Origin: an uncultured Rickettsiales bacterium
Lineage (GTDB): Bacteria > Pseudomonadota > Alphaproteobacteria > Rickettsiales > RI-342
DNA: 64,000 nucleotides
Direction: 5' to 3'
Assembly (NCBI GenBank): GCA_964435165.1
Contig: CAYSXY010000002.1
Location: 8,126 to 72,125, forward strand
Shown: piece by piece, positions 23,887 through 63,098 of the stretch
Layout: the number at the start of each line of letters is the position of its first letter
How positions within the stretch are numbered: position 1 is the stretch's first letter
Position numbers and translations under genes: made by a program
The notes under the pieces: model-generated
What the model saw: only the letters and a program-made list of their open reading frames with translations
The model's database searches: none
Told to the model about the DNA's origin: nothing

Positions 23887-25527
23887 ATGGTGAGCAAATC
23901 AACTTTGCCAGCCTATTGGTATCTTCCGGCTGTGACCGGGCTTATCGCCCCGTTGGAAGCCTATCGCATTGGCCATGATTGGTGGTCCGTCGGCGACACG
24001 TTGCTGCCAATTATGCTGATTATCCTGTTTGCGTATGCGGTGGCAGCGTTGGTCTATTGGCGTACAAAAAACGGGCCATTTTCCTTACTCATGGCGAGCA
24101 GCGCCACCTACCTATTGTTCAAATATGAAGAATTGACGATAGCCGTGAGTGCTATTGGGCCATGGATAGTCCATGATACGTTTCCAATCTTCATCGCGAT
24201 GATGATGATTGCGCTCATGCTTCGGCTGCTTGGCCATGTGCTGCGCCAGCCAAACGCTCTGCTGGCTCGCCGAGCGGTGCATGTGTTGATTCTCGTTCAC
24301 GCCGGGGTGCTCGCCGCGCTTGCAGCTCCGGTTGCTATCTCACATTCATGGCTGAATCATGACAAGACAGCATCACATGAGATGAGCATGGAAGCCGTGG
24401 ACGTCACGTCACCTGACCGCGAACTGCCGGATATCTATTATATTATTCCGGATGGTTATGCGAATGCGCGCCATGTGTTGCAGCCACTATATGGCATGGA
24501 GGCCAACCCGTTACTGCCGTTTTTAAGAGAAAAAGGCTTCTATATCGCTGAGGATAGCCGGAGCAATTATGTGCAGACAATGCTGTCGATACCTTCCAGC
24601 CTGAATATGGAATATCTGCAAACCATCTATCCGGAAATGAATCCGAAGGAAGCGAGTCGGGCTCCTTTATCCGGTTTGGTAAAGAATAACACCGTGATGA
24701 ATAACCTTCGTCATTTGGGATATGATATCAATATCCTTGAAAATGGTTTTTTGGATCGCGAAGAATCTAATGCGCTGATGTCCCTCCACGATAGGGTGAT
24801 CAAGATGTCACCGCTAACATTACTGACTTTCTTTCAGGCGGGGTACAATTTTAATCGCTTACATATTCAGTTGATTGAGGATGGAATCGCTGCGATCAAA
24901 CAGGCGGCACACCGCACAAATCACGCAAACCCTGTATTTTTTCTCGCACATTTTATCAATCCTCACCCCCCTTTCCTGGCAACCAGGGATGGGTGGATTG
25001 AGCCGGGGCCTCTCTACCGACTGTCTGATGGATCACACTTAATCGATTGGTGGGGCATGCATGACCTGCATGGCGATAATCGAGAAGAACGCCAAGCCTA
25101 TTATCGTGAAGCGTACCGTGACCAATTACTCTATTTCAATACACGCATCATGGAGATGGTTGAGACAATATTGGCGCATAATGCACGTCCGGTGTTGATT
25201 ATACTGCAGGCAGATCATGGTCCAGGCTCGCTCTGGCGTTGGGATGTGGCAGACAAGCAGGCGATCGGGCCTGCCAGTATCAATGAGCGTACCGGCATCA
25301 TCAATGCCTATTATTTTCATGACCAGCGCTATGATGCGCTATATCCGCACATCACCCCCGTCAATAGCTTTCGGGTAATGCTCAACCAGTATTTTGGACA
25401 ATCCTTACCTTTGCTGGATGATCGCGTCTTTGTCTCATTGTGGGAGCGGCCCTACGATTTTCGTGACGTCACGTCCCAACTGCGCGACATGAATCATAAC
25501 GAGGCCAGCAGGCCGGGTCAGCCTTGA
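23887..25527 (+). CDS. membrane-anchored sulfatase-like (alkaline phosphatase superfamily) hydrolase/transferase
   Basis: About five N-terminal TM helices, then PDIYYIIPDGY, FLAHFINPHPPF and ILQADHGPG, which are typical of LTA-synthase / phosphoethanolamine-transferase-like sulfatase folds. Confidence 0.6.
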   Translation: MVSKSTLPAYWYLPAVTGLIAPLEAYRIGHDWWSVGDTLLPIMLIILFAYAVAALVYWRTKNGPFSLLMASSATYLLFKYEELTIAVSAIGPWIVHDTFPIFIAMMMIALMLRLLGHVLRQPNALLARRAVHVLILVHAGVLAALAAPVAISHSWLNHDKTASHEMSMEAVDVTSPDRELPDIYYIIPDGYANARHVLQPLYGMEANPLLPFLREKGFYIAEDSRSNYVQTMLSIPSSLNMEYLQTIYPEMNPKEASRAPLSGLVKNNTVMNNLRHLGYDINILENGFLDREESNALMSLHDRVIKMSPLTLLTFFQAGYNFNRLHIQLIEDGIAAIKQAAHRTNHANPVFFLAHFINPHPPFLATRDGWIEPGPLYRLSDGSHLIDWWGMHDLHGDNREERQAYYREAYRDQLLYFNTRIMEMVETILAHNARPVLIILQADHGPGSLWRWDVADKQAIGPASINERTGIINAYYFHDQRYDALYPHITPVNSFRVMLNQYFGQSLPLLDDRVFVSLWERPYDFRDVTSQLRDMNHNEASRPGQP

Positions 25528-25745
25528 GCTATGCCTCATCGCTGAGTCAGTAGACGAAGCGGGAGGCAAAACAAAAAGTGGCCACCAGCCTTGAGCCAGC
25601 CTCATGGGGATGCAACGCATCACCGGAGGCGAACACAATAACTCCAAGCCAGCCTTGATCTGCTCTATGTGGATCCGCACGCCCACTGCAAGCGCTTATC
25701 TCACGTCGAGCATCGCTGAGTCAGTAGATGAAGCGGGAGGTGATA
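25519..25745. repeat. degenerate tandem repeats (about 64-67 bp period) bounded by two 30 bp near-identical copies
   Basis: cagccttgagNNNgcctcat recurs at 25519, 25586 and, degraded, at 25650. catcgctgagtcagtagaYgaagcgggagg occurs at 25537-25566 and 25711-25740 with 1 mismatch. The first unit overlaps the stop codon of the sulfatase-like gene. Confidence 0.6.
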
Positions 25746-25746
25746 A

Positions 25747-25849
25747 TATAGCCATTCACATTAATTTTCATACAATCTGAATGGCTATGAGGCCGCGACT
25801 CCTGCCTGCGCCATAGTTGGCGCGTAAGCCTTAGTGGGAAAAGCTATAG
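25747..25849 (+). repeat. 103 bp dispersed two-hairpin repeat, copy 1
   Basis: 100 of 103 positions are identical to 60165..60267. Hairpin 1 pairs atagccattca (25748-25758) with tgaatggctat (25778-25788). Hairpin 2 pairs tgcgcc with ggcgcg (25807-25824). Confidence 0.85.
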
Positions 25850-25977
25850 TCGTTTAAAGTTAAATGACTATATAAATGTGTCATTGCCGGGCCTGACCCG
25901 GCACAATCCGGATGACTGGTTTGAAAGTAACACGCGATAACGTTGCGATAGAGCAAGGTAAAGCTTCAGGTTTCTCG

Positions 25978-28443
25978 CTATTTCGAGGTGGCGATAAACA
26001 CACCATTCCAGTCAGCCGGTGGTGGTGATATGCGGAAATCAGCAATGCGCTCACGATATAATGCCCAGAAGATATTAAGGTCTGGCCATAATTCCTCGCC
26101 CTTGGCAATTAATTGCTCGGCAACATCAAATTTCTGGCTGCGATAGGCATTGAGCATTTCGGTATTGAGTGTAGAGAGTGCTTTGAAACGGTCACTCGAT
26201 GCCATCATATTGTCACCTAAAATAGCAAAAATACGGACCGGCTCTGTTTTGCCTTTCACCTGAAGCAGGTCAAGTTCGATGATGGCAAAGGTACCATCCG
26301 GTAACTGATTGACGGAATATTCACTGATAACGATATCTACGCCATAGGTTTTCGACTGGCCTTCCAGGCGGGAAGCAAGGTTTACATGGTCACCCAATGC
26401 GGAATAATCAAAGCGCTGGTCAGACCCCATATTACCGACGCAACAATCACCGGTATTGATGCCGATACCAATAGCAATGGGGATATGGGGGCGACCTTCA
26501 TTTTTTGCCTCGCGCTCCATATAGCGATTCATACGGTTTACTTCGTCGATCATATCCAGCGCAGCCTGGCAGCTACGCACCGGGTGGTTGGTCACCGGCA
26601 GCGGGGCATTCCAAAATGCCATAATGGCATCGCCCATATATTTGTCGATAGTCCCTTTATGTTCCAAAATCACATTGGTCATAGGTGTAAGGAAGCGATT
26701 GATGAATTTGGTCAGTCCCTCTGCATCAAATTGCTCCGAGATCGTGGTGAAACCACGAATGTCACTGAATAACAGGGTAATGTTGCGTGTCTCACCCCCC
26801 AATTTGAGCTTGTCCGGGTTATCCGCCAGCTCTTCGAGCAAGGCCGGAGAGACATAGTGAGAAAAGGCCGTTTTGACCTGCCGCCGTTCCTGTTCTTCGC
26901 GGATGTAATTAAGGTAACTCAGGCTGACAGACATGCCGAAGATCACCAGGCTGGGAAAGGCAGCATCGATCAGCATCTGCCGTGTCATATAGTAATGCCA
27001 GGCGGTATAGCACAAAATACTGATGAGACTGACAGAAAGCAGGAAGTTCCATAAAGCACTAAGCCGTGGTACCAGTGCTATCAGGAGCAGGCCGGCGGCG
27101 ATCATCATGCCGAGTTCGATCATAATGGCGAAATCTGGCCGGGTCAGGTGGGTGTGTGAGAGAATATTCTCCAGCACCTGAGCATGCACTTCAACGCCGG
27201 GAAGGGCGCCGTTTATCGGAGTCGCCCGGATATCTTTCAGCCCAATGGCCGAGGTGCCGATAATCGCCAAATGTCCTGCCAGCCGCCGCTCTGGGTGTTT
27301 GACGGTTTTTAAGAGTATATCCGTTGCCGAGACATAGATGGGGTCGGTGATGTTATAATTGGCAAAATGCACCCATATCTCGCCATAAGGCGTGGTGGGA
27401 ATTTCATATCCGCCGCCAAAGCCGCTTTTAACAACAATACTTTCAATACCGCTACCATCTTTGTGGGTTTTGAGGAAATAATCATCTCTTCCTTGCAGGG
27501 CAACGCGGATCATCTCCAGCGTCAGGGCTGGAAATATCTGGTCACCGACACGCGACATTAAGGGCACCCTGCGATAAATACCGTCCTGATCCGGCTGCGA
27601 TGAAAACAAGCCAATCCCGTTCGCGGCCTCTTCAAGCAATGGCAGGTTGCGGATGATACCAGGATAGCGCGGCAGAAATGGCTTTGGGTCATTATTCATA
27701 AAGCCGAAACCAACTTTACGCGGGAGGTTTTCCAGTTGCGTCGGTTTGTGCGTACCCACATGACCCAGTACGACCCGGCTGTTAGCAATAGCTTGACTAA
27801 AAACATCTTCATTGCTCGGAAGTGCGCGTAAAATATCCTGCACGCCGGATTCCAGCCCGTCGATTTCTTCCGCCAGTTTGGGAGGAGACATGCGATCTTC
27901 CTCGGCAAAAATCATATCGAAGCCCACCACCATCACGCCATATTCAGTGAGGTTCTGCACCAGTTGCGCGATGAGGGTACGCGGCCATGGCCATTGACCG
28001 AACTCGCTTAATGATCGATCGTCAATATCAATGATCACCACGCCGGCTTCCATTGTGGATGGGTCTGGCTGGCGCGGTTCAATACGCTGATACATATCGA
28101 ATGTTTTATGGCGCAGCATCTCCAACGTAGGATTGTCGCCTGCATTGACATATAAAATGCCCGCTAAAAAGCCAAAGCCAAGCAGGTAATGGAAGGCCAT
28201 GCCGCGGATCAGGCCGCCCATTTTGCCATAGGCACGCTTCCACAGACCAGGCGATACTTCTTTCTTAGTGCGAGACGAGCGGCGTTGAGACGATGAACTG
28301 CCGCTTCGTCCTGTTGATGAACGACGGTGTGAATGACGACCCTCGCGTGATGACGATGATGAACGCCGCCGTCTGCGGCGCTTCTTCCTATCGCCCTGAG
28401 TTGAATTATCGTCAGCAGAAGGAGCTTTCGGTTCATCGGTCAT
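25978..28443 (-). CDS. CHASE2 sensor domain adenylate/guanylate cyclase (class III)
   Basis: 821 aa. Has a TM helix, a periplasmic domain of about 300 aa, three TM helices, and a class III cyclase domain (ITLLFSDIRGFTTISE, KYMGDAIMAFWNAP, GINTGDCCVGNMGS, ALGDHVNLASRLE). The ATG lies 1 nt after the HlyD stop. Confidence 0.85.
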   Translation of the reverse strand: MTDEPKAPSADDNSTQGDRKKRRRRRRSSSSSREGRHSHRRSSTGRSGSSSSQRRSSRTKKEVSPGLWKRAYGKMGGLIRGMAFHYLLGFGFLAGILYVNAGDNPTLEMLRHKTFDMYQRIEPRQPDPSTMEAGVVIIDIDDRSLSEFGQWPWPRTLIAQLVQNLTEYGVMVVGFDMIFAEEDRMSPPKLAEEIDGLESGVQDILRALPSNEDVFSQAIANSRVVLGHVGTHKPTQLENLPRKVGFGFMNNDPKPFLPRYPGIIRNLPLLEEAANGIGLFSSQPDQDGIYRRVPLMSRVGDQIFPALTLEMIRVALQGRDDYFLKTHKDGSGIESIVVKSGFGGGYEIPTTPYGEIWVHFANYNITDPIYVSATDILLKTVKHPERRLAGHLAIIGTSAIGLKDIRATPINGALPGVEVHAQVLENILSHTHLTRPDFAIMIELGMMIAAGLLLIALVPRLSALWNFLLSVSLISILCYTAWHYYMTRQMLIDAAFPSLVIFGMSVSLSYLNYIREEQERRQVKTAFSHYVSPALLEELADNPDKLKLGGETRNITLLFSDIRGFTTISEQFDAEGLTKFINRFLTPMTNVILEHKGTIDKYMGDAIMAFWNAPLPVTNHPVRSCQAALDMIDEVNRMNRYMEREAKNEGRPHIPIAIGIGINTGDCCVGNMGSDQRFDYSALGDHVNLASRLEGQSKTYGVDIVISEYSVNQLPDGTFAIIELDLLQVKGKTEPVRIFAILGDNMMASSDRFKALSTLNTEMLNAYRSQKFDVAEQLIAKGEELWPDLNIFWALYRERIADFRISPPPADWNGVFIATSK

Positions 28444-28444
28444 C

Positions 28445-29740
28445 TCAACGCTCCCTGAATGCTTCGGAGGTGACTTTAAGCAATGGTTTGAGCAAATATT
28501 GCATCACCGTCTTGCTACCGGTTTTGATATCAGCAGAGGCTTGCATGCCAGGGGTGATAGGCAACTGGCCCGGGAGGTCTCCAAGGTAGTTTTTATTGGT
28601 ACGGATAATCACTTCAAAATAGATTTCACCGGATTTCTCATCCGTGTAGGAATCGGCTGAGACGGATTGCACCGTCCCTTCTAATCCACCAAATCGCATA
28701 TAATCATAGGTATTGACCTTCACCAGCGCATGCTGGCCATTGGTCACAAACCCGACATCATTGGGGTTAAGTCGCGCTTCGACGACAAGATTGTCACTGA
28801 TCGGCACTATTTCCATAATCACCTCTCCGGGTTTGACAACCCCGCCGAGCGTATGATTTTTGAGTGATTTTACCACGCCATCAATGGGACTTTTAATGGT
28901 GGTACGGAGCACCTGATCGGTAGCGCGGGTCAGCATTTCCTGCGAGCGGGCAATTTCCAATTCAGTATCACGCAGCAGTTCCTGCGCCTGGTTTTGATAG
29001 GTCACTTCTTCGCTTCGCAGGCGCTCTTTTGTTTCTTTTAACGCAGCACGTGAACGAGGAATGGCAACGTCAATAATTTCCAAACGACCTGTTAATTCCT
29101 GTACTTCACTCTCTAGCTGAAGGTGGTCGAGTTTCGACGTCAGTTTGTCTTTAATCAACTCGTTGGAAATGCGCATTTTTTCACGCAACACATTCAGGTT
29201 TTTCTTAATGGAGGCGCGCTCGGTCTCCAACTGGGTGACATCCAGTTCTTTTTGTTGCACCTGTTCATGTAATACGCTCAAGCTACTCTCTAACCGGCGG
29301 CGATTGCCTTCAAATGTCATAATTTCCGAGTGTACCAGTTCAGGCCGATATTCCCCATTCTCATTGGGAATGGATAGCCGCTCATCACCTCGTGCTTCAG
29401 CCATCAGGCGCAAGCGCTTGAGTTTTAGGCCTTCCAAATTCACCATTAATTCTTCTTTATTGGCAACAAAGGAGGTGATGTTCAGCTGCATGAGTTCTTC
29501 ACCCTGACTGACATGTCCACCTTCTTTCACGTGGATTTTTTCGATAATACCGCCTTCCAAATGCTGGATGGTTTGAATTTGCTCCTGTGGCACGATTTCG
29601 CCTTGCGCGACAGACACTTCTTCCACACGCGCAAAAAATGCCCACACCATCATCCCGGCCAGTAACATCATGACGAGGCGAGCCATCAGTGGCAGGTTGC
29701 TGCGTGGTGGTTGCTCCAATAATTCATCGAGTTTACTCAC
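28445..29740 (-). CDS. type I secretion membrane fusion protein, HlyD family
   Basis: N-terminal TM helix, lipoyl-like hairpin (GGIIEKIHVKEGGHVSQGEELMQL), a long coiled coil and a C-terminal beta domain ending TVMQYLLKPL. The GTG start overlaps the ABC stop (GTGA). Confidence 0.9.
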   Translation of the reverse strand: MSKLDELLEQPPRSNLPLMARLVMMLLAGMMVWAFFARVEEVSVAQGEIVPQEQIQTIQHLEGGIIEKIHVKEGGHVSQGEELMQLNITSFVANKEELMVNLEGLKLKRLRLMAEARGDERLSIPNENGEYRPELVHSEIMTFEGNRRRLESSLSVLHEQVQQKELDVTQLETERASIKKNLNVLREKMRISNELIKDKLTSKLDHLQLESEVQELTGRLEIIDVAIPRSRAALKETKERLRSEEVTYQNQAQELLRDTELEIARSQEMLTRATDQVLRTTIKSPIDGVVKSLKNHTLGGVVKPGEVIMEIVPISDNLVVEARLNPNDVGFVTNGQHALVKVNTYDYMRFGGLEGTVQSVSADSYTDEKSGEIYFEVIIRTNKNYLGDLPGQLPITPGMQASADIKTGSKTVMQYLLKPLLKVTSEAFRER

Positions 29741-31623
29741 GACGTGCCTCCTTGCCCTGTAGGTGGCATGGGTGCCGCAGGAGTATGTGGCTGTTGCGTT
29801 GCAGGCCCTGATGGTGCTGCTGGTTGTGGCGTGGCTGCGGTGGCTGGTGCCGATGGTTGGGCTGGTGCCGCAGACTGAGGGCTTGCCTGCGTGGTCTGCG
29901 GATGCGCATCATCTGGTTTGCCGCTCAACCTGGCCATCACCTTGTCCCCTGGGCCCATCATGGCAATGCGGCCGCGTTCTAGGACGATAATTCGGTGGCA
30001 CATGGTGAGCAGGGGAATGGAATGCGTCGCCAAAATAATCGTGCGGTGGGTGGCCAGTTCACGAATTGTCTGTGCAAGGCGCATTTCCGCCTCATTATCC
30101 AGATTGCTGGTAATTTCATCAAACAGGAGCACGGGGGGATTTTTCAGCAAAGCACGGGCAATGGCGAGCCGCTGACGCTGACCACCGGAGAGCTTAAACC
30201 CACCTTCGCCAATTTCTGTGGCATAGCCGTCAGGTAAATCACTAATAAACCCATCGGCATCAGCGAGCTTGGCCGCTTTGAGCACGACCTCATCCGGTGC
30301 CTCGGGCCAGGATTTGGTGATGTTATCGCGAATGGTTCCATCGAACAGGAAGCATTCCTGCGGCACATAGCCAACCCATTGCGACAATTGCTCGCGCGTA
30401 AACTGGCTGATATCCGCATTATCCAACAAAATGCGGCCCTTTTGCGGTTCATAAAGCCCCTGCAGACATTTAATCAGCGTGGTTTTGCCGCAGCCATTGC
30501 GCCCAACCAGGGCTGTCATCTCGCCGGGTTGAAACAGGCAACTTACCTCTTCCAATATTGGTTGTTGTGCATCATAGCCAAAGGTGAATTGCTCAACCGC
30601 CATATGTCCCATTGGGCGTTCACGCTCAATACCCGCTTCTTCACGCTCGGAGTCAAGGTGAAATAGCCGGTCCAGCCGAACGATGGCCTGTTTACAGGCC
30701 GCATAATTTTTCCAGTTGCCCAGCAATTGATTGAGTGGGGCGATGATCCGGCTGGCCAGCATATTAGCGGCGATCAGCGAGCCAATGGTCATCTCGCGCT
30801 CAATAATCGCGAGCGCCCCGGTCGTCACCATCATCACGGTGGTGAGCATCATCAGGCTGTGGCCTAAGCTGATGAATCCATCAGTACGCGAGCCGCGCTC
30901 ATAGGCCTGTGTGATGGATTCGGCATGCACATCTTCCCATTTCGGGGCGATGATTTTATCAATCATCAATGCTTTCACCGTGGTGCGCCCGCCCATCAGT
31001 TCGGCGACCATCGCATCGCGGTGCAGGCCTTTATGCCGCTCCTTGGCGGTGTCGACATCCTGCACATGCGATGAAAACCAGGTGAGCAGAAGAAAAAGCG
31101 GCACCACCAGCAGCAACACCCAGGCAATGGGCATGGCGATGATGCAAATCACAACGATGAAAATAATGGCAAACGGCAAATCAGCCAGCAACAATGCCGC
31201 CGGGCCGGAGAAAACACCGCGAACAGTGGCAGCATCCTGAAACAGTGATTGCCAATAGCTGGTGGGGCGCGATTCCAATGTCAGCAGCGGAAGGCTGGTG
31301 AGCTTGTGATAGAGGGCGCGGCCCAGATGCGCGTCAATATGCAGTGCGGTGGATTGCAGCATGCGACTGCGTGCCTGTCGCAATAAATAGTCAAACCCCA
31401 GTGCCAGCAACACCCCCACCACCAGCGCATAGAGCGTGCTGATACCATTATGCCCCACTACCCGGTCATACACTTGCAGGGTGAAGAGCGGTACAGCCAG
31501 CGCCAGCATGTTGGAGAAAAAGGAAACCGCCATCACCTCGCCAAACCGCGGCAATAGGGGACGCAGAATATCTTTTAACCATAGTGCATGAGGTGATTTC
31601 CACCATCCGATCATGATGTTCAA
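29737..31623 (-). CDS. type I secretion system permease/ATPase (PrtD-like, no C39 peptidase domain) with a Pro/Ala-rich C-terminal tail
   Basis: TMD opening FTLQVYDRVV, Walker A GRNGCGKTTL, signature LSGGQRQRLAIARA and Walker B VLLFDEITSNLD. The last 60 aa or so are PQTTQASPQSAAPAQPSAPATAATPQPAAP.... Confidence 0.9.
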   Translation of the reverse strand: MNIMIGWWKSPHALWLKDILRPLLPRFGEVMAVSFFSNMLALAVPLFTLQVYDRVVGHNGISTLYALVVGVLLALGFDYLLRQARSRMLQSTALHIDAHLGRALYHKLTSLPLLTLESRPTSYWQSLFQDAATVRGVFSGPAALLLADLPFAIIFIVVICIIAMPIAWVLLLVVPLFLLLTWFSSHVQDVDTAKERHKGLHRDAMVAELMGGRTTVKALMIDKIIAPKWEDVHAESITQAYERGSRTDGFISLGHSLMMLTTVMMVTTGALAIIEREMTIGSLIAANMLASRIIAPLNQLLGNWKNYAACKQAIVRLDRLFHLDSEREEAGIERERPMGHMAVEQFTFGYDAQQPILEEVSCLFQPGEMTALVGRNGCGKTTLIKCLQGLYEPQKGRILLDNADISQFTREQLSQWVGYVPQECFLFDGTIRDNITKSWPEAPDEVVLKAAKLADADGFISDLPDGYATEIGEGGFKLSGGQRQRLAIARALLKNPPVLLFDEITSNLDNEAEMRLAQTIRELATHRTIILATHSIPLLTMCHRIIVLERGRIAMMGPGDKVMARLSGKPDDAHPQTTQASPQSAAPAQPSAPATAATPQPAAPSGPATQQPHTPAAPMPPTGQGGTS

Positions 31624-31733: not shown

Positions 31734-33284
31734 GTGTGGCGTAGCGTTGATGCTATGGGCGGATGCACAACAGATATTGGTGGTTTGAGTGAGCAGCTAG
31801 CTACGCTGCGGCAGATGCGCGCGGATGATCAGACTGCCTATCGCTCCATGCGCGATGCGGTGATCATCGCCTCGCTTCCACATAGTAGTAATTACAGTAA
31901 AGACCGTGAGCGGGCCTGGTATCAGCGGGCGCGGGCGCGTCAGGGCGACCATGTGGAGACGGTGCTGTATGGTGCCATCTGGGAGGCATTGCGGCCCAAT
32001 GAGCGGCTGGTGATCGAGCAGCTCTATTACGAACATCCGCCGCTGGTGGCCGAGACGACCGGGCTGTATAAAGCGCTTCACGCCTTTGCAGAGGCGCGCG
32101 AGTCCGGCGACACGGCGCTGGCCCGGCAGCATCTACGCCATGCATTGTGGGAGCTGCTGCACAACTCGCCCTACCCGGCGCGTAATGACCTGGAGCGCGA
32201 CAAGGCCAGGCGGCGCCGCACGGCGCAAGCCATGATGCTCAATAGTATGAGCTGCTGTTTAAAGAGCCTGCCCACGCCGGATTATATCATCGAACCATTG
32301 CGGCAGCGCTATGCCAAAATGCCGCTGGAAAACTTATTGCCTGATATTGTGTTTCCGCTGGAGGAAAATGCCCGCACCATCGCCGAGGAAATTCAGCGGA
32401 TTAATGCACAGATGCAGCAGGGAATTGAAAAACTCACTGCCACCGAGCAAAAATCTATTGTCACAGACGCTGTCACCATTCCAGAAGCGACTCATGCATT
32501 TTCTGATCTCTACATGGGCATTGTTGAGACCGGGACTCGCACGCTCATTGATCAGAAGCTCGAAAAACTTGCCCAGCGAGGCTTAAACGAAGCCGAGATC
32601 AGAACAGCTCTCGAAGAAGTCTTGAGCAATCACCAAAATAACACGATCCCCTATAAGACAGAAATGCTCGCCATACATTTTCATGGCAAACTGAACGAGG
32701 TTCGGATGCGACAGGCAGGGCATACGCATTATATGTGGTTGTCCATGGATGACGACCGTGTGCGTTCGAGTCACAGCGCAAATGATGGCCAAATTTTCTC
32801 GTTTGATAATCCGCCACCCACCGGCCACCCCGGCGAAGATTATAATTGCCGCTGTCAGGCTGCACCGGTGCAGTTGGCAGCGCTGAACCTACCGCCTGCC
32901 CTCATTGCCGCCGCCATCGCAGCGACAAAAGCGACCATCAAGCGATCACAGCAAAAGATCAAAGATGCTGCGGCGAAGGTCAGAAAAAATCCTGTGGTGC
33001 GGGGAGAAAAAGCACCTAAAGGCGGCAGGAAAGATACGGACTGGTCATTTGATAAAAATAAGTCTCCAAAAAAATGGGAAAATCAAAAAAGAGAGCGAGA
33101 TTGGACGGATGAGGAGATTACAAAGGCTATAAAGCATGGTGATGCGTATCGAACTGAGAATTACAGAACTAACAAGCCAGCTACCTTATATGAATACAAT
33201 GGAAAGTATGTGGTCAGAGATGATACTACAAAAGAAATCATTCAGATTGGTTGCAAAGGATTTGAGCATCCATCGCTACCATAG
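31734..33284 (+). CDS. MuF (phage Mu F / SPP1 gp7) domain protein with a lysine-rich C-terminal module: candidate polymorphic toxin
   Basis: The MuF signature WLSMDDDRVRSSHSANDGQIFSFDNPPPTGHPGEDYNCRC lies at about 32730-32858. It is followed by a hydrophobic linker (LAALNLPPALIAAAIAA) and a basic, AT-rich tail of about 110 aa. The start is uncertain (GTG 31734 or ATG 31755). Confidence 0.7.
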   Translation: MWRSVDAMGGCTTDIGGLSEQLATLRQMRADDQTAYRSMRDAVIIASLPHSSNYSKDRERAWYQRARARQGDHVETVLYGAIWEALRPNERLVIEQLYYEHPPLVAETTGLYKALHAFAEARESGDTALARQHLRHALWELLHNSPYPARNDLERDKARRRRTAQAMMLNSMSCCLKSLPTPDYIIEPLRQRYAKMPLENLLPDIVFPLEENARTIAEEIQRINAQMQQGIEKLTATEQKSIVTDAVTIPEATHAFSDLYMGIVETGTRTLIDQKLEKLAQRGLNEAEIRTALEEVLSNHQNNTIPYKTEMLAIHFHGKLNEVRMRQAGHTHYMWLSMDDDRVRSSHSANDGQIFSFDNPPPTGHPGEDYNCRCQAAPVQLAALNLPPALIAAAIAATKATIKRSQQKIKDAAAKVRKNPVVRGEKAPKGGRKDTDWSFDKNKSPKKWENQKRERDWTDEEITKAIKHGDAYRTENYRTNKPATLYEYNGKYVVRDDTTKEIIQIGCKGFEHPSLP

Positions 33285-33293
33285 GAGGAGATT

Positions 33294-33521
33294 ATGAAAA
33301 CGATAAAACTTTATGTACAGCTCTTAGGTGAGGCTGTTCCTACTGTTCGCCCTACAGAAGCTGAAGTGTTGAGTAACGGCCTGTATAAGCTGCTACCAAC
33401 AGAGAGCTATAATCCTGAGGATGAAGTATGGGAGTTTCTCCCAGGCAGTATTGTGAGCAGAAAGGAAATAAAAAATATTAAAGGTCAAAACATGAATGTT
33501 GCAATAGCACCTGAAAAATAA
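33294..33521 (+). CDS. candidate cognate immunity protein (75 aa)
   Basis: Starts 9 nt after the toxin stop and has a strong SD (tAGGAGGagattATG). It shares the AT-rich composition of the toxin C-terminal module. No family recognised. Confidence 0.45.
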   Translation: MKTIKLYVQLLGEAVPTVRPTEAEVLSNGLYKLLPTESYNPEDEVWEFLPGSIVSRKEIKNIKGQNMNVAIAPEK

Positions 33522-33588: not shown

Positions 33589-34035
33589 GTGCGGCCAAAA
33601 GTCGATGAGGAAATCACTAAGCAGGCTGAGCAGGGTAAGACGGAAAATGAGATAGATGAACACCTGACGCAGGTGATCGCACATTATCAGGATACGACCA
33701 TTCCCTACAAAACGCAGATGCTGGCGACGCATAGCTTTATACTATTGATTCATTTCTTAACAGGCATGAATCAGCGCTCAAATGGCGCTAAGCCTCACGC
33801 GCCATAAGGCGCGACGCGTAGTCACGCTTGCTCGCCATTCCAACGATTGGAATGGCGAGAATAGTAAGCTCAGCGAATTGGCGATGCGTGAGCAGGGCTA
33901 CACCACTATATCTGGCATTCGCAGGATGACCCCAAAGTACGGCCCGACCATGCCGCCAATGATGGCCAGATTTTTTCTCTTGATAACCCGCCACCCACGG
34001 ACCACCCGGGCGAAGATTACAAATGGCCGGAATGA
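33589..34035 (+). pseudogene. orphan, disrupted MuF-domain fragment (paralogue of the 3' half of the 31734 gene)
   Basis: The block 33589-33732 (VDEEITKQAEQGKTENEIDEHLTQVIAHYQDTTIPYKTQMLATH) matches IDQKLEKLAQRGLNEAEIRTALEEVLSNHQNNTIPYKTEMLAIH. The block 33925-34035 (DDPKVRPDHAANDGQIFSLDNPPPTDHPGEDYKWPE*) matches DDDRVRSSHSANDGQIFSFDNPPPTGHPGEDY. Both blocks are in the same frame, separated by about 123 extra bp that contain stop codons. Confidence 0.65.
33785..33865 (-). repeat. diverged, inverted member of the two-hairpin repeat family, inserted in the MuF remnant
   Basis: ctaagcctcacgcgccataaggcgcg...ctcgccattcc-aacgatt-ggaatggcgag parallels the reverse complement of the 103 bp repeat (ctaaggcttacgcgccaactatggcgc...atagccattca-loop-tgaatggctat). 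It has the same order of a GC hairpin followed by a gccatt / aatggc hairpin. Confidence 0.4.
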
Positions 34036-36096: not shown

Positions 36097-37395
36097 CTAG
36101 CGTAAGAATAATGCTGGGGTGAGTTGCCCCATCGCCTGCAGCAGGCGATAAACAGCCGTGTAATAATCATAGCGTGCAGAGGCGGCGTCGATTTTCGCAC
36201 GGAATAATTCATTTTCCGCATCCAGTACATTAATAGCCGTCTCGCTCCCTGCATCCCGTAATTTGGTACGAGAGTCATAGACTTCCGCCGCAATGTTGAC
36301 GGCATTTTCCAATAAATCGAGCCGTTTCTGACTGACAGTTAAGGAGGTCCAGGCCAGCTTGACTTCCTGCACGGTCTGTCGCATCGCCTGGCGGTAATTC
36401 TCACCGGTTGCTTCATAATTAGCGGCGGCTTGTTTAACACGGGCAACATCGGCTCCGCCATTATAGAGGTTCCAGCTCATCCGCCCTGTGACCGAAAATC
36501 GTGTCTCCGTGCCGGACACGCCACTGACATTATCGTCATAATTACCGGCAGATACCAGATCAACGGACGGGTAATAAGCAGATTTGGCGACATCGCGGGC
36601 CAGGCTGGCCACTTCCACCCCATATTTACTGGCGAGTAACCCTCGGTTGGCCTGCAGGGCGGCCTGAATCGCTTCATCAATACTCGGTGGTATCTGTTTG
36701 AAAGGAATATCCGGAATCTGCAGGTTGCCTAAATCCGGTTCACGGTCAAACACCTGCGTGAAGCGGCTGATCGCATCTTTCAGATTGCCCTGAAAGGCAG
36801 TGTAACGCTCTTTGGCGATTTGCAGGCGTGATTTGGCTTGAAGCACATCCACGGCAATGCCGGAGCCGCGCTGTACGCGTTCATCCTCTAACTGCAACTG
36901 CCGTTTCAATGTCTCAATATTCTCAAGTGACAGATTGTTAAGTTCAATCTGTCGCAGAATATCCAGATAGGAATTAATAGCTTCGAACATGACCTGCTGC
37001 TGCACCTGTTCGAGCGTCATTTCCGCGACGTCGACGCCAATTTTGGCGGACTCATGCGATGAGCTAACCCGGTAGCCGGTAAAAAGGGGTTGCGTAACGG
37101 TCAGGCTGTGGCTATCGGTCGGATAATTCGTATAATTACCCGCAGGGTTGGTTTCAGTACGATCAATCGTCTCATATCCAATATTAACTGCCGCATCAAC
37201 GCGCGGCAAATATCCGCCTAGCGCTTCCCGTTCGGCAGCTTCTGAGGCATCCACACCCGATTCAGCGGCTTTAATCAGCGGATGGTCGGCCAGCAGGTCC
37301 TGAATCAAATGCGGTAGTGGCCCGGCGCTAGCCGAAGAACTGCCAAACCATACAATACATGTGGCGAACAAGACAGAATACCGCGCAGTCACCAT
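36097..37395 (-). CDS. tolC: TolC family type I secretion outer membrane protein
   Basis: Signal peptide (VLFATCIVWFGSSSASA) after the ATG at 37395, which has the SD tGAGGAGc. Shows the two-fold OEP repeat architecture with typical TolC motifs (LLADHPLIKAAE, YLPRVD, ALQANRGLLA, YYPSVDL). The track ORF extends to 37500. Confidence 0.85.
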   Translation of the reverse strand: MVTARYSVLFATCIVWFGSSSASAGPLPHLIQDLLADHPLIKAAESGVDASEAAEREALGGYLPRVDAAVNIGYETIDRTETNPAGNYTNYPTDSHSLTVTQPLFTGYRVSSSHESAKIGVDVAEMTLEQVQQQVMFEAINSYLDILRQIELNNLSLENIETLKRQLQLEDERVQRGSGIAVDVLQAKSRLQIAKERYTAFQGNLKDAISRFTQVFDREPDLGNLQIPDIPFKQIPPSIDEAIQAALQANRGLLASKYGVEVASLARDVAKSAYYPSVDLVSAGNYDDNVSGVSGTETRFSVTGRMSWNLYNGGADVARVKQAAANYEATGENYRQAMRQTVQEVKLAWTSLTVSQKRLDLLENAVNIAAEVYDSRTKLRDAGSETAINVLDAENELFRAKIDAASARYDYYTAVYRLLQAMGQLTPALFLR

Positions 37396-37577
37396 GCTCC
37401 TCAATGCACGAGGATAAAGTGAGGGTCGTCGCCTGTAGCGACGGTGAGTCAAAACGTAATGGCGGCTCATAACCAAGGTTGCTAACAATGACACAGCCAA
37501 AGCTGCTTATGCATTCTTTATGAATGGGCCATGTAAACAATCCCTTAATTGATAAAAAGCAGGGAGATAATTTATGC

Positions 37578-38683: not shown

Positions 38684-40762
<2,079 letters not shown>

Positions 40763-40789
40763 CGGTTGCCATACAGAGTTCATTTACAA

Positions 40790-40814
40790 GGGCCGCCGTC
40801 GCGGCCCTTTTTTT
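40790..40814 (+). terminator. rho-independent terminator after fusA
   Basis: gggccgc-cgtc-gcggccc stem-loop followed by ttttttt. Confidence 0.85.
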
Positions 40815-40896
40815 GTGGAATATGGGCGGGTTTGAATCTCATTTATTCTGAGGAGGCGAGGCTATCTCATTTAAGAAAATAACGGTGAATTAATTC

Positions 40897-40924
40897 TTGA
40901 CTCCCGGGGCTAAACTGCTATGTA
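40897..40924 (+). promoter_or_regulatory. putative promoter of the S10 operon
   Basis: TTGACT (40897-40902), a 16 bp spacer, then TATGTA (40919-40924), about 110 bp upstream of rpsJ. Confidence 0.3.
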
Positions 40925-41031
40925 TTGCGCCCCTCGCGAAAAGAAGGGTGGCTGCAGGCCTCCTGGCGAGCTTAGAGACAGAGTACAAAACGATAATATC
41001 AGTCGCTATTTGACAGCGTGTTGAGGAAAAG

Positions 41032-41358
41032 ATGCAAGGACAACGAATTCGTATCCGGCTTAAGGCGTTTGACCATCGAGTATTGGATCAATCAACTTCT
41101 GAAATTGTGAGTACCGCTAAGCGCACAGGTGCGCAGGTGCGTGGCCCCATTCCTCTTCCGCGTCGCATTGAGCGCTTCACGGTGCTGCGTTCCCCTCATG
41201 TGAATAAGAAATCGCGTGAGCAGTTTGAGATCCGCACCCATAAGCGTCTTATTGATATTGTTGATCCAACCCCGCAAACGGTCGATGCGCTGATGAAGCT
41301 TGATCTGGCGGCGGGTGTAAATGTTGAAATTAAATTGGCTGGTGGAGCCGCGGCATGA
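41032..41358 (+). CDS. rpsJ: 30S ribosomal protein S10
   Basis: [18 protein letters not shown]...RGPIPLP. Confidence 0.95.
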
Positions 41359-60131: not shown

Positions 60132-60164
60132 CATGTGATCTCTGTCGTGTCTATTACCGTTATT

Positions 60165-60267
60165 TATAGCCGTTCACATTAATTTTCATACAATCTGAAT
60201 GGCTATGAGGCCGCGACTGCTGCCCGCGCCATAGTTGGCGCGTAAGCCTTAGTGGGAAAAGCTATAG
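60165..60267 (+). repeat. 103 bp dispersed two-hairpin repeat, copy 2
   Basis: 100 of 103 positions are identical to 25747..25849. Located 34 bp after the ATP12 stop and about 70 bp before the ABC-like gene. Confidence 0.85.
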
Positions 60268-60335
60268 GCGTATTTCCCGCCATTTCTTGTCGAATAAGAT
60301 ACCCAACGGCTCGATTTTCACCTATATAGCCCGCG

Positions 60336-62080
60336 GTGAAATGGCTGGAGATAAAGGTGCATCAAATCCCTGCAACGGCGAATGAATTATCACAGGAGAT
60401 AAAACGGCTGATATCGCTGATTATCGCCGATGATAATCGGTTGATCGGCCTAGCATTGATTTATGGGATTGGTATCAGCCTGCTGACACTGTCTGTTCCA
60501 ACAGCCGTACAGATGCTGATTAACTCCGTGGTTCATACCACGTCTGTCACGGCAGTGATGACCCTGGCATTTGTTTTGCTGCTACTGCTGTTGGTCTCCG
60601 GCTTGTTTAATGCGGTACAGGCTTACGTCATGGAGCTGTTCGAACGGCGGTTCTATGCGCGCATCACATCGGAATTTACGCTGCGTATTATCTATGCCGA
60701 TCACACCTATTTTGACCGGATCAACCGCTACGAACTGGTCAATCGCTATTTTGACATCATGACGGTACAATCCATCATACCCAATCTCATTGTCGGTTTG
60801 TTCGCGCTCATTCTGCAAATGATCGTCGGATTTACACTAGTCTCGTTTTATCACCCGTGGCTGTTTCTGTTCAATCTGGGTATCATCATCGTATTATACT
60901 TAATCTGGCGCATCTGGGGACATAATGCCATACGGACCGTTTTTCCTTATCGGCGGCGAAATATGCAACCGCCCATCATTTAGAAGATATCGCACGCGCC
61001 AACAGTTTTTTCAAAACCGCGACCCACATCAATCAGGCATTGAAGAAAAGCGACAGCATGACAGGGCGCTATATTCAGGAACGGCGCCAGCATTTTCGTT
61101 ATACCTTTTCGCAGCATGTTGCCTTGCTCCTATTATACGCCGTTGCCAGTGCACTTCTGCTGGGAGTGGGTGGAATTCTGGTGCTGAGGGCAGAATTGAC
61201 CATTGGCCAGCTTGTGGCGGCGGAGCTGGTGCTAACCGCGGTATTTTACGGGCTTTCACGGGCAGGCTATTATCTTCAGCAATGCTATAAGCTGTTTGCC
61301 GCATTAGAAGAAATATCGCTGTTTTTCGATGTGCCGCTCGAAGCAATGGAGGGAACGAAGACGCTGGACTCCACAGAGTCACTGGTCATTTCCTACCGGC
61401 AGGCAGCCTTTACCGAGGGTGAGAAAGAGACGCGATTCAATTTCGAGATCGAGTCGGGCAAAAATATACTGATCAGTTGCCAAAGCCAGTCTTTGGAGGC
61501 GTTACTGCTTGATACGCTCAAATATTATCGCAAACCGGATAAAGGAAGCATTCTGGTCAATGATCATGCGCTGGAAGATTATGATGTACAGCATATGCGT
61601 GGTCAGATTATCATTCAGGACAGACCGACCATTGTGGAATGCACAGTGGAAGAATATCTGCAATTTGCCTCGTCAGAGAAGATCAGCGCAACCGAGATGA
61701 ATCATGTGCTTGCGCTGGTGGAGCTGGATCAGAAGATCGCCTCGTTGCCACAAGGACTAGCCACCAGCCTCACCGTGACCGGGCTGCCGCTGTCTCTGTC
61801 CGAAACCTTGCGCCTCAAACTTGCCCTGGCATTGTTATCGAAGCCCAAAATACTCGTACTGACGGAATTATTCGACATGATTTCAACCAAGCGCCGTAGG
61901 CGGATTCTGGTCCGGCTGTGCGATGAACCGTCCTTTTCAGTGCTGTATGTGTCGAACCGCATCGATGTAGAGATGTTCGATGACTATTTATATGTGGGAG
62001 CCCGGGAACAGATATGGCTGCCTGATGCCAATGCATTAAGGTCAGTGGAAGAAAGCAACGTTGAGACAGCACATGACTGA
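60336..62080 (+). pseudogene. ABC exporter-like protein (TMD + catalytically degenerate NBD), interrupted by a frameshift
   Basis: ORFs 60336..60983 and 61040..62080 together form one ABC TMD-NBD. The two frames overlap at 60926-60983, and adding one T to the T5 run at 60940-60944 restores ...NAIRTVFSLSAAKYATAHHLEDIARANSFFKT.... In the NBD, Walker A is ESGKNILISCQSQSLEA, the signature is LPLSLSE, Walker B is ILVLTELFD and the H-loop is VSNR. Confidence 0.7.
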
Positions 62081-63098
62081 GCCTTTTTTGCCTGAGCATC
62101 GCGCAGCGTTTCGCCAACTACATGCACTCAAAATTCTGTCACGTACCCATGCGGCCGGGCGCATTCTGCTCATCTTCATGCTTAGCATGTTGCTCTTTAT
62201 GATGCTGGTACCATGGGTGCAAACGGCGCCTGGGCAGGGATTTATCACAGCGCTTCATCCGGAAGACAGGGCGCAGCAAATCAGTGCCATGGTACCGGGG
62301 CGCATCCAGCAATGGCATGTACAGGAGGGTAGCGTTGTCAGTCAGGGGGATCCCATCGTTGAAATTCTCGATAATGATGACCAGCTTATCCAGCGGCTGA
62401 TGGCAGAACGTAATGCCTTGCAGCAAAATATTGAGTTGGATCGGATTGCGGCCTAAACCGCGCGATTGGATTATCAGCGCCAGCGCGATTTGCTATCGAG
62501 CCAGTTGAGCGCACCGCGAGATGTAGAAAATGCCAAAATTCGTTACAAATCCCTGCTTGCGACTCTGGAGCAATCCAAGGTGCAGTTAAATCAAATGGAG
62601 GTGCGGCTGGCGCGACAGCAGGCGCAGACATTGCGGGCGCCTCGGGATGGCACGATCACGCGTATTATTGCGGCCAATATCGCAACGTTGGTGAATCAGG
62701 GAGAGCCATTGGCAACCTTTGTGCCAAAAGACAGTGAGCCTGCTGTGGAACTTTATGTCCGCGGTATCGATATTCCGCTGATTTATCCGGGTCGCAAAGT
62801 CCGGCTGGAGTTTGAAGGATGGCCTGCTGTTCAGTTTTCCGGCTGGCCCTCTGCCGCGGTGGGAACGTTCGGTGGTGTCGTGCAGGTGGTGGACCCATCC
62901 GTCACGCCAACAGGCCAGTTTCGTGTGCTGGTGGTGCCGGATCCCGATGATATGCCGTGGCCGGATCAGCAATTTTTGCGGTATGGTGCCCGTGCAAAGG
63001 GCTGGGTGCTGTTAGATGAGGTCAAAGTAGGGTTTGAATTGTGGCGTCAACTCAACAACTTTCCCCCCGTGGCCGTGAGCGATATTCCCGTGCAATAA
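62073..63098 (+). pseudogene. HlyD family periplasmic adaptor interrupted by an in-frame TAA
   Basis: ORFs 62061..62456 (TM helix plus lipoyl hairpin VPGRIQQWHVQEGSVVSQGDPIVEI) and 62466..63098 (coiled coil plus beta domain) are in the same frame. Only the TAA at 62454-62456 separates them (...ELDRIAA*TARLDYQRQRDLL...). Confidence 0.7.

Follow-up and report, generated by a model that had tools for sequence, protein, structure and literature searches.

A three-hairpin intergenic repeat of about 103 nt, probably a small non-autonomous mobile element, and the limited weight of its one-strand wobble pairs

When two nearly identical copies of a hairpin-forming repeat differ at paired positions, and the differences preserve pairing on one strand only, the question arises whether the sequence is maintained as an RNA transcribed from that strand or as a palindrome at the level of the DNA. 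This question is raised by a short sequence, c2, in a stretch of 64,000 nt of DNA (the whole of which is referred to here as the window). A preliminary description of c2 proposed that two of its three substitutions relative to an upstream copy, c1, are compatible with wobble pairing only on the + strand, and that this favours an RNA-level structure transcribed from that strand. The analysis described here leads to a different reading, which is considered on balance probable: that the element is a small lineage-specific non-autonomous mobile palindromic intergenic repeat, of the MITE, REP-BIME or RIME kind, which is passively co-transcribed.

The extent of the repeat follows directly from the comparison of c1 with c2 (the coordinates of all features are collected in Table 1). 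A repeat search of the window finds a direct repeat, 25747-25853 / 60165-60271, with both members on the + strand and 96% identity over 107 nt, within which c1 and c2 are 97% identical (blastn E=2e-48). The block of identity starts abruptly at TATAGCC and ends at GCTATAG(N)CGT; in the 60 nt on either side the similarity between the two loci is not significant, the flanks being unrelated, and the two copies are separated by 34 kb and have different genes around them. Within element positions 1-103 there are exactly three differences, the number originally given, and a fourth (25850 T, 60268 G) is found at the base immediately following the range 60165-60267. An artefact of assembly is not the source of c2, because its ends are also present in an independent Logan assembly, where one contig stops after the first 38 nt of the element and a second begins at its position 75 (contigs L001 and L027). 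The contig break at position 38 was considered as a possible sign of many copies, but c1 and c2 suffice to account for it in full (k=31 following the variant position 8). The element is of practical interest as a cause of assembly breaks, as the Logan contigs end inside it. Three copies occur within the ~74 kb examined, which comprise the window and flanking Logan sequence, and a covariance model made from all three (R2) recovers only these in 90,301 bases (comprising the window, 8.1 kb upstream in L024 and 1.8 kb downstream in L027).

Table 1. Coordinates, hairpins, sequence differences and predicted RNA folding energies of the repeat copies
Feature	Coordinates	Strand	Description
Copy 1 (c1)	25747..25849	+	100/103 identical to c2; covariance model 137.7 bits
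Copy 2 (c2), element under study	60165..60267	+	covariance model 138 bits
Copy 3 (c3), diverged	33776..33860	-	~70% identity to c1/c2 over core; covariance model R1
Hairpin 1 of c2	60165..60207	+	12-bp stem (positions 1-12 with 32-43), 19-nt A/T-rich loop
Middle GC hairpin of c2	60209..60224 (positions 45-60)	+	pairs G45-C60, G46-C59, C47-G58, G49-C56, C50-G55 in minimum-energy fold
GC hairpin of c2	60225..60242 (positions 61-67 with 72-78)	+	7 bp; CGCGCCA-UAGU-UGGCGCG
Left end of c2	60165-60182	+	TATAGCCATTCACATTAA
Right terminal inverted repeat of c2	60249..60266	+	TTAGTGGGAAAAGCTATA
End sequence of the element			TATAGCCATTCAC
c1/c2 difference 1	element position 8		A at 25754, G at 60172
c1/c2 difference 2	element position 55		C at 25801, G at 60219
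c1/c2 difference 3	element position 61		T at 25807, C at 60225
c3 hairpin 1			CTCGCCATTCCAA-TCG-TTGGAATGGCGAG; 13 perfect pairs, 3-nt loop
c3 middle hairpin			GCGUG-ACUA-CGCGU
c3 GC hairpin			CGCGCC-UUAU-GGCGCG, then UGAGGCUUAG (vs UAAGCCUUAG in c1/c2)
c1 RNA fold			sense -35.9 kcal/mol (z -2.95); antisense -38.4 (z -4.20)
c2 RNA fold			sense -42.7 kcal/mol (z -4.19); antisense -39.2 (z -3.50)
c3 RNA fold			sense -58.1 kcal/mol (z -4.81); antisense -56.9 (z -4.09)

In predicted RNA folds the element of c1 and c2 consists of three hairpins: hairpin 1, a small middle GC hairpin, and a GC hairpin which is followed by UAAGCCUUAG and has no U-tract. Hairpin 1 of c2 includes the pairs G8·U36 (60172/60200) and, at its end, U1·G43, and the closing pair of the GC hairpin is C61-G78 in c2 and U61·G78 in c1. 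The predicted fold agrees with what had been proposed for two of the three substitutions: the change of A to G at 60172 converts the pairing of position 8 with U36 from A-U to G-U, and the change of T to C in the GC hairpin converts the pairing of position 61 with G78 from U-G to C-G. The third substitution had been assigned to an unpaired spacer, but it is not clearly unpaired, since in the minimum-energy fold of c2 itself C55>G creates the C50-G55 pair of the middle hairpin.

On the complementary strand the minority states at positions 8 and 61 do both produce C·A or A·C mismatches, as had been pointed out, so that the direction of the wobble pattern is not in dispute. The weight that the pattern can bear is a separate matter, which depends on the null expectation. 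When one member of a Watson-Crick pair undergoes a transition, one strand acquires G-U and the other A·C, and without selection the two outcomes divide 50/50 between the strands. Since c3, the diverged third copy, carries A8 and C61, the G8 of c2 and the U61 of c1 are independent derived changes, and two out of two such events favouring the + strand corresponds to p=0.25; if the U1·G43 pair common to c1 and c2 is added, all three independent events give G-U on the sense strand, with no A·C among them, which corresponds to p=0.125. The wobble pattern is as first described, but the sample is too small to carry the RNA conclusion drawn from it, for which it has almost no statistical weight. One-strand wobble pairing derived from two substitutions is a signal at the level of a coin flip, and should not be used on its own to call an RNA gene.

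The RNA-level interpretation is that the element is a three-hairpin structured RNA made from the sense strand, which acts as a 3'-UTR stabiliser or processing site or as a multi-copy sRNA, and in which selection acts on the fold. The three G-U pairs (U1·G43, G8·U36 and U61·G78) are the first point in its favour, and this 3:0 ratio points weakly towards a strand-specific constraint and, to that extent, against a mobile repeat. The energy cost of the two derived changes, G8 and U61, is a second: ~0.4 + 1.7 kcal/mol (~2.1 in total) on the + strand as against ~4.4 + 2.5 (~6.9) on the - strand. The overall stability of the element, on the other hand, is not strand-biased, neither the energies nor the z-scores of the whole element showing a strand preference. 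Taken by itself, hairpin 1 has its more stable form on the minus strand, and in folds with DNA parameters both strands are stable, with z from -3.1 to -6.9. Furthermore, the ends of IS200/IS605-type elements and the substrates of REP/RAYT systems are recognised as strand-specific single-stranded DNA hairpins (PMC6006769, PMC3116915), and by analogy elements mobilised as ssDNA would likewise tolerate G·T on one strand. Because hairpins in ssDNA predict the same asymmetry, even a significant asymmetry in wobble pairing would not separate RNA from ssDNA.

The conservation of the fold in a further copy, which could have shown a random loss of pairing, can be assessed from c3. A sequence-only HMM from c1 and c2 (nhmmer) gives a marginal match at 33786-33849 on the minus strand, with E=0.0088. 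A covariance model (R1) of the three helices, trained on c1 and c2 and run over the whole window with filters off, scores 33776-33860 (-) at 27.6 bits, E=1.3e-5, while all other matches, except self matches and matches to the reverse of the palindrome, reach at most 10 bits. The order of the modules in c3 is the same as in c1 and c2, all three hairpins are kept, and the strings GCCATTC/GAATGGC, GACT, GCGCC..GGCGCG and CTTAG are common to the three copies. In a model-guided alignment of the copies 96.9% of the cells are standard pairs, compared to 30-46% when the pairing partners are slid by 1-3 columns. Five pairs are changed on both sides between c1/c2 and c3: in hairpin 1 three A-U pairs are replaced by C-G, and the other two lie in the middle helix. 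The observed values of pairing and compensation are attained by only 3 of 500 shuffles, in a test that involves n=3 sequences, an alignment fitted to the model, and a structure derived from the same three sequences. The fold is regarded as conserved because c3 keeps the three hairpins with five compensatory changes, and this is fair evidence that the hairpins have been maintained across the copies.

This evidence is neutral with respect to the strand question. Compensation from one Watson-Crick pair to another is symmetric, so the five changes tell neither which strand nor which nucleic acid is involved, and they fit a DNA-level palindromic mobile element as well as they fit an RNA-level one. 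The middle hairpin of c3 does contain two further G-U pairs on the sense strand, which would count towards RNA, but these are biased because they were found by folding that strand. A candidate of another kind, a peptide gene, was rejected: the ORF content of the unit of ~103 nt is 11 codons in c1 and c2 (MAMRPRLLPAP, read from the sequence, in which two of the c1/c2 differences happen to be synonymous), and this ORF is not kept in c3, where an unrelated one of 16 codons (MASKRDYASRLMAREA) is found.

Conservation in c3 also bears on the possibility that there is no mobile family, c1 and c2 being remnants of gene conversion or a local duplication, with c3 as a chance look-alike cluster of hairpins. 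There are only two close copies, a local tandem duplication is present beside c1, and the case for c3 is made by model scores only, all of which this interpretation can use. It is much harder to reconcile with the sharp edges of the identity and the unrelated flanks, with the separation of 34 kb and the different gene contexts, with the E-values of c3 under both the covariance model and the HMM when unrelated matches do not exceed 10 bits, and with the module order and strings that c3 shares with c1 and c2; its chance of being correct is judged to be slim.

All three copies are intergenic and downstream of genes; two have convergent genes on either side, and no copy occupies a divergent promoter region. 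A location downstream of genes is the bias which has been described for REPs (PMC3184786). On the two sides of c1 are a sulfatase-like gene ending at 25527 and a convergent gene for a CHASE2 adenylate/guanylate cyclase ending at 25978, and c3 lies between the gene for a MuF/colicin-E5 polymorphic toxin, with small ORFs downstream of it, and a convergent FMN reductase gene. The orientation of c1 and c3 is uninformative because they are between convergent genes, and this removes a potential source of support for an RNA-level element. The remaining copy, c2, is in the sense orientation between co-directional genes: upstream is ATP12, which closes a run of CrcB, pseudouridine synthase and ATP12 genes, and ~90 nt downstream is the start of an ABC gene. 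Two details of this arrangement require correction. The spacer between the ATP12 stop and c2 is 33 nt (60132-60164) rather than 34 bp, and the ABC-like gene, which does lie downstream of c2 as described, has its recorded start not at 60336 but at a GTG at 60357 (with GGAG before it), and is frameshifted. Co-transcription of the copies is probable, given their position immediately after genes. The sense orientation of c2 closely behind ATP12, with no intervening terminator, is consistent with an RNA-level element; it fits a DNA-level mobile element equally well.

The same placement, between convergent genes or at the ends of operons, would also suit a function for the host at the level of the DNA, the element being either a protein-binding or topological site, of the kind that BIMEs provide for gyrase or IHF, or a site of recombination between convergent units. 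Palindromes that are kept with compensatory changes are consistent with such a site, as is the feasibility of cruciform or ssDNA folding on both strands. But the IHF consensus WATCAANNNNTTR (with at most one mismatch) is present in none of the three copies, no binding protein is indicated, and three copies in 74 kb, two of which are near-identical, resemble recent copying more than an ancient site, so that a host function of this kind must be rated very unlikely.

Several features were observed in the regions around c1 and c2. Beside c1, at 25519-25746, there is a decayed tandem triplication with a period of ~64-77 nt. Its start falls within the 3'-terminal part and stop codon of the sulfatase-like gene; it contains CAGCCTTGAGC three times, a 30-nt repeat at 25537 and 25711 has 29/30 identity, and the Logan contig L028 breaks inside it. 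A longer module shared by the regions upstream of c1 and c3 was considered and rejected, as the similarity is not significant (p=0.065). Downstream of c2 a frameshift divides the ABC gene (60357-60983 + 61040-62080) and an in-frame stop an HlyD gene (62061-62456 + 62466-63098), and the same breaks are present in the independent Logan assembly; the ABC and HlyD genes within 60336-63098 look like pseudogenes. They are only 22-30% identical to an intact ABC/HlyD pair at 28445-31623, and a segmental duplication that carried the element along with such genes was rejected on the basis of this low identity and of the differing positions and orientations of the elements. A 16-nt inverted repeat, 60271-60286 / 60338-60353, 88% complementary with its arms 51 nt apart, extends from just after c2 to the first codons of the ABC ORF, and it could sequester the ABC translation start.

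Searches for known signals yielded nothing that would identify the element as a functional RNA. Terminator-like sites, consisting of a hairpin and a T-run, are present at none of the three loci, and an intrinsic (Rho-independent) terminator is rejected because no U-tract directly follows the GC hairpin. Promoter matches at the three loci are at chance level and none is convincing. Rfam 15 has no match in the window at the gathering score, and with E relaxed to 5 it gives only sub-threshold chance matches, the best of which (P9) has 22 bits against a cutoff of 43. A tRNA-like element was also rejected, ARAGORN finding no tRNA or tmRNA. Taking these results together with the p-values of 0.125-0.25 for the wobble pattern, the RNA-level interpretation is considered unlikely, although it would be of some consequence, since if it were true of many copies the element would represent a new 3'-UTR or sRNA family.

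A comparison with known repeat systems provides the background for the reading of c2 as a mobile repeat. Bacterial MITEs are defined as small, non-coding sequences with terminal inverted repeats (TIRs) and a stable fold (PMC3184786), and the features of the element fit this definition in part, its TIR being weak and its target duplication ambiguous: its 103 nt are below the limit of <~400 bp, it contains no transposase or conserved ORF, and it has multiple dispersed copies in one genome (three in ~74 kb). Like the Correia/CREE elements of Neisseria, ERIC/IRU of enterobacteria, RUP of Streptococcus and Nezha of cyanobacteria, which are ~100-150 bp, non-coding and intergenic, it has putative TIRs, would form stable hairpins when transcribed, and occurs as near-identical dispersed copies, and its terminal TA is as in Correia and ERIC-type elements (PMC3184786). 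It differs from them in that the TIR is ~18 nt and imperfect, whereas that of Correia is at least 26 nt, in that an internal segment can also pair with its 5' end, so that it forms a mosaic of three hairpins rather than a single long one, and in that an IHF site, a cognate IS and a proven target duplication are absent from the DNA examined.

The element resembles REP, BIME and REPIN sequences, including the GTAG- and CGTC-tagged REPs, in being made of short GC-rich palindromes, in its location downstream of genes or between convergent genes, and in its mosaic of hairpin modules (PMC3116915, PMC3733652). Y1 transposases have been proposed to mobilise REPs as ssDNA, and CGTC REPs predominate in Alphaproteobacteria (PMC3116915, PMC3733652). 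REPs are, however, 20-40 bp long or form an inverted doublet, while the element is ~100 bp and includes a hairpin with an A/T loop. In a CGTC-type REP the stem is 8-9 bp and starts with A/T pairs, the loop is 4-5 nt and the tail is CCA (PMC3733652); the element has a stem of 6-7 bp that is all G/C save for a loop-closing A-U, a loop of 4 nt, and a TAA/TGA tail. As for the tag (PMC3733652), c1 and c2 carry GCCT and GCCC 5' of the GC hairpin, and CGTC is found in c3 only. Membership of the CGTC- or GTAG-tagged REPs was rejected for these reasons, as neither the tag, nor the composition and length of the stem, nor the tail fits.

With the non-autonomous elements derived from IS200/IS605 (PATE-like elements) the repeat shares sub-terminal hairpins near both ends and strand-specific ssDNA folding (PMC6006769), which would account for the tolerance of wobble pairs on one strand, but PATE-like elements have no TIRs and integrate on the 3' side of a fixed tetra- or pentanucleotide (PMC6006769), whereas the element has a putative TIR and its left flanks differ, GATAA at c1 and TTATT at c2. 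The TIR itself is modest: the first 18 nt, TATAGCCATTCACATTAA, match the reverse complement of the last 18 nt, TATAGCTTTTCCCACTAA, at 14/18 positions without gaps (p ~0.025 against shuffles), and the inverted repeat is not evident in c3. In both c1 and c2 a TA flanks TAGC...GCTA on each side, and this could be a target duplication or part of the element's own sequence. The 5' end can pair either with its internal complement, as in hairpin 1, or with the 3' end; as RNA the closed form is ~3 kcal/mol less stable, while for c2 as ssDNA pairing from end to end is the minimum-energy structure.

Among alphaproteobacterial repeats, the RIME (Rhizobium-specific intergenic mosaic elements) and the Bru-RS1 and Bru-RS2 elements of Brucella are intergenic repeats of ~100 bp composed of two or more large palindromes. 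The element is likened to these by description only and homology is not claimed; the host here is Rhodospirillales-like and not a member of the Rhizobiales.

The history proposed for the element can be outlined. The unit would be ~103 bp long, bounded by imperfect terminal inverted repeats TATAGC...GCTATA with a TA on each side, and would comprise a 12-13-bp hairpin with an A/T loop, a small GC hairpin, and a GC hairpin of 6-7 bp. We infer that a transposase acting in trans inserts copies of it, as DNA, at new intergenic sites, and that this enzyme is either of the DDE type, duplicating TA, or of the Y1/HUH type, recognising hairpins in ssDNA; c1 and c2 (97% identical) would then have been copied recently, and c3 long ago. 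Co-transcribed copies would fold as stable stem-loops at the 3' ends of transcripts, where they may incidentally slow the 3'-5' decay of the upstream mRNA. What the sequence itself establishes is the repeat with its abrupt ends, the kept hairpins, the placement after genes and the lack of terminator, Rfam and coding signals; mobility, the type of transposase and an influence on mRNA belong to the proposed history.

This MITE- or REP-like reading is preferred because the near-identical copies are dispersed and have unrelated flanks, because the copies share their hairpins, because of the TIR and TA and the location downstream of genes, and because no known family matches. It is weakened by there being only three copies, by the short and imperfect TIR, by the ambiguity of the TA, and by the absence from the ~74 kb examined, in which the ORFs of the window were scanned with Pfam, of a transposase, an IS with matching ends, RAYT, TnpA or TnpB. 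A more ambitious alternative is that an RNA module, read from the sense strand, has spread through an isolated Rhodospirillales-like lineage to the 3' ends of operons, where the alternative pairing of the 5' arm would act as a conformational switch or nuclease-processing site that sets the stability of mRNA 3' ends, the whole constituting a new family absent from Rfam; this is considered distinctly unlikely. If the element is instead a passively co-transcribed mobile repeat, it is one more lineage-specific small palindromic repeat, and serves as a marker of genome dynamics in a near-unsampled alphaproteobacterial lineage.

No further copies were found in any public collection searched. The exact word GAATGGCTATGAGGCCGC gave 21 chance matches of 18-23 nt in unrelated phyla among contigs of species-representative genomes, a collection from which the host genome is absent; a scan of metagenome contigs with CCATAGTTGGCGCGTAAGCC gave one chance match of 21 nt; the scans of viral contigs gave none and two chance matches; and BLAST in distant mode against plasmids and phages gave no match. 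The open frames of the element were also compared with 5.8 billion proteins in order to find spurious ORFs annotated over other copies, and no candidate and no protein relatives were found. The position of the host is relevant here. Its best EF-G homologues, from Varunaivibrio, Roseospira, Magnetospirillum, Magnetovibrio and other Rhodospirillales, are at most 82% identical, identity to the nearest ATP12 homologue is 44%, and exact matches to the proteins are confined to a single NCBI contig (97,419 nt) and Logan run SRR7048223. On these sequence identities the host appears to be a deeply isolated Rhodospirillales-like alphaproteobacterium, and with EF-G at no more than 82% and ATP12 at no more than 44%, there are no orthologous intergenic regions that could be compared.

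Two sequences near the copies resemble parts of the element. An A/T-rich hairpin of 13 bp, TATAGTCGTTTAA/TTAAATGACTATA, at 25845-25872 overlaps the 3' end of c1, and its arm matches the 5' end of the element at 9-10 of 13 positions, which is not statistically significant; it may be a solo hairpin-1 module or a remnant of an end. The sequence TATAGCCCGCGGTGAAATGGCTGGAG at 60325-60350, just before the ABC start, is like a collapsed hairpin 1 (TATAGCC ... GAATGGCT). It is not detected by the covariance models, and the likeness may be due to chance, as TATAGCC occurs five times on the + strand.

Other observations concern further genes of the window. Between fusA (38684-40762) and rpsJ (41032-41358) there is a gap of 269 nt (40763-41031) with no tuf gene, an unusual arrangement compared to the order fusA-tuf-rpsJ, which is common in the str operon of alphaproteobacteria. 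Near c3, within 31734-33521, the polymorphic toxin of 516 aa combines a Phage_Mu_F (MuF) domain with a colicin-E5 ribonuclease domain at its C terminus, and the ORF of 75 aa that follows it probably encodes its immunity protein. A T1SS ABC/HlyD pair lies upstream of the toxin gene, and a gene for a TolC-like OEP is located at 36097-37500.
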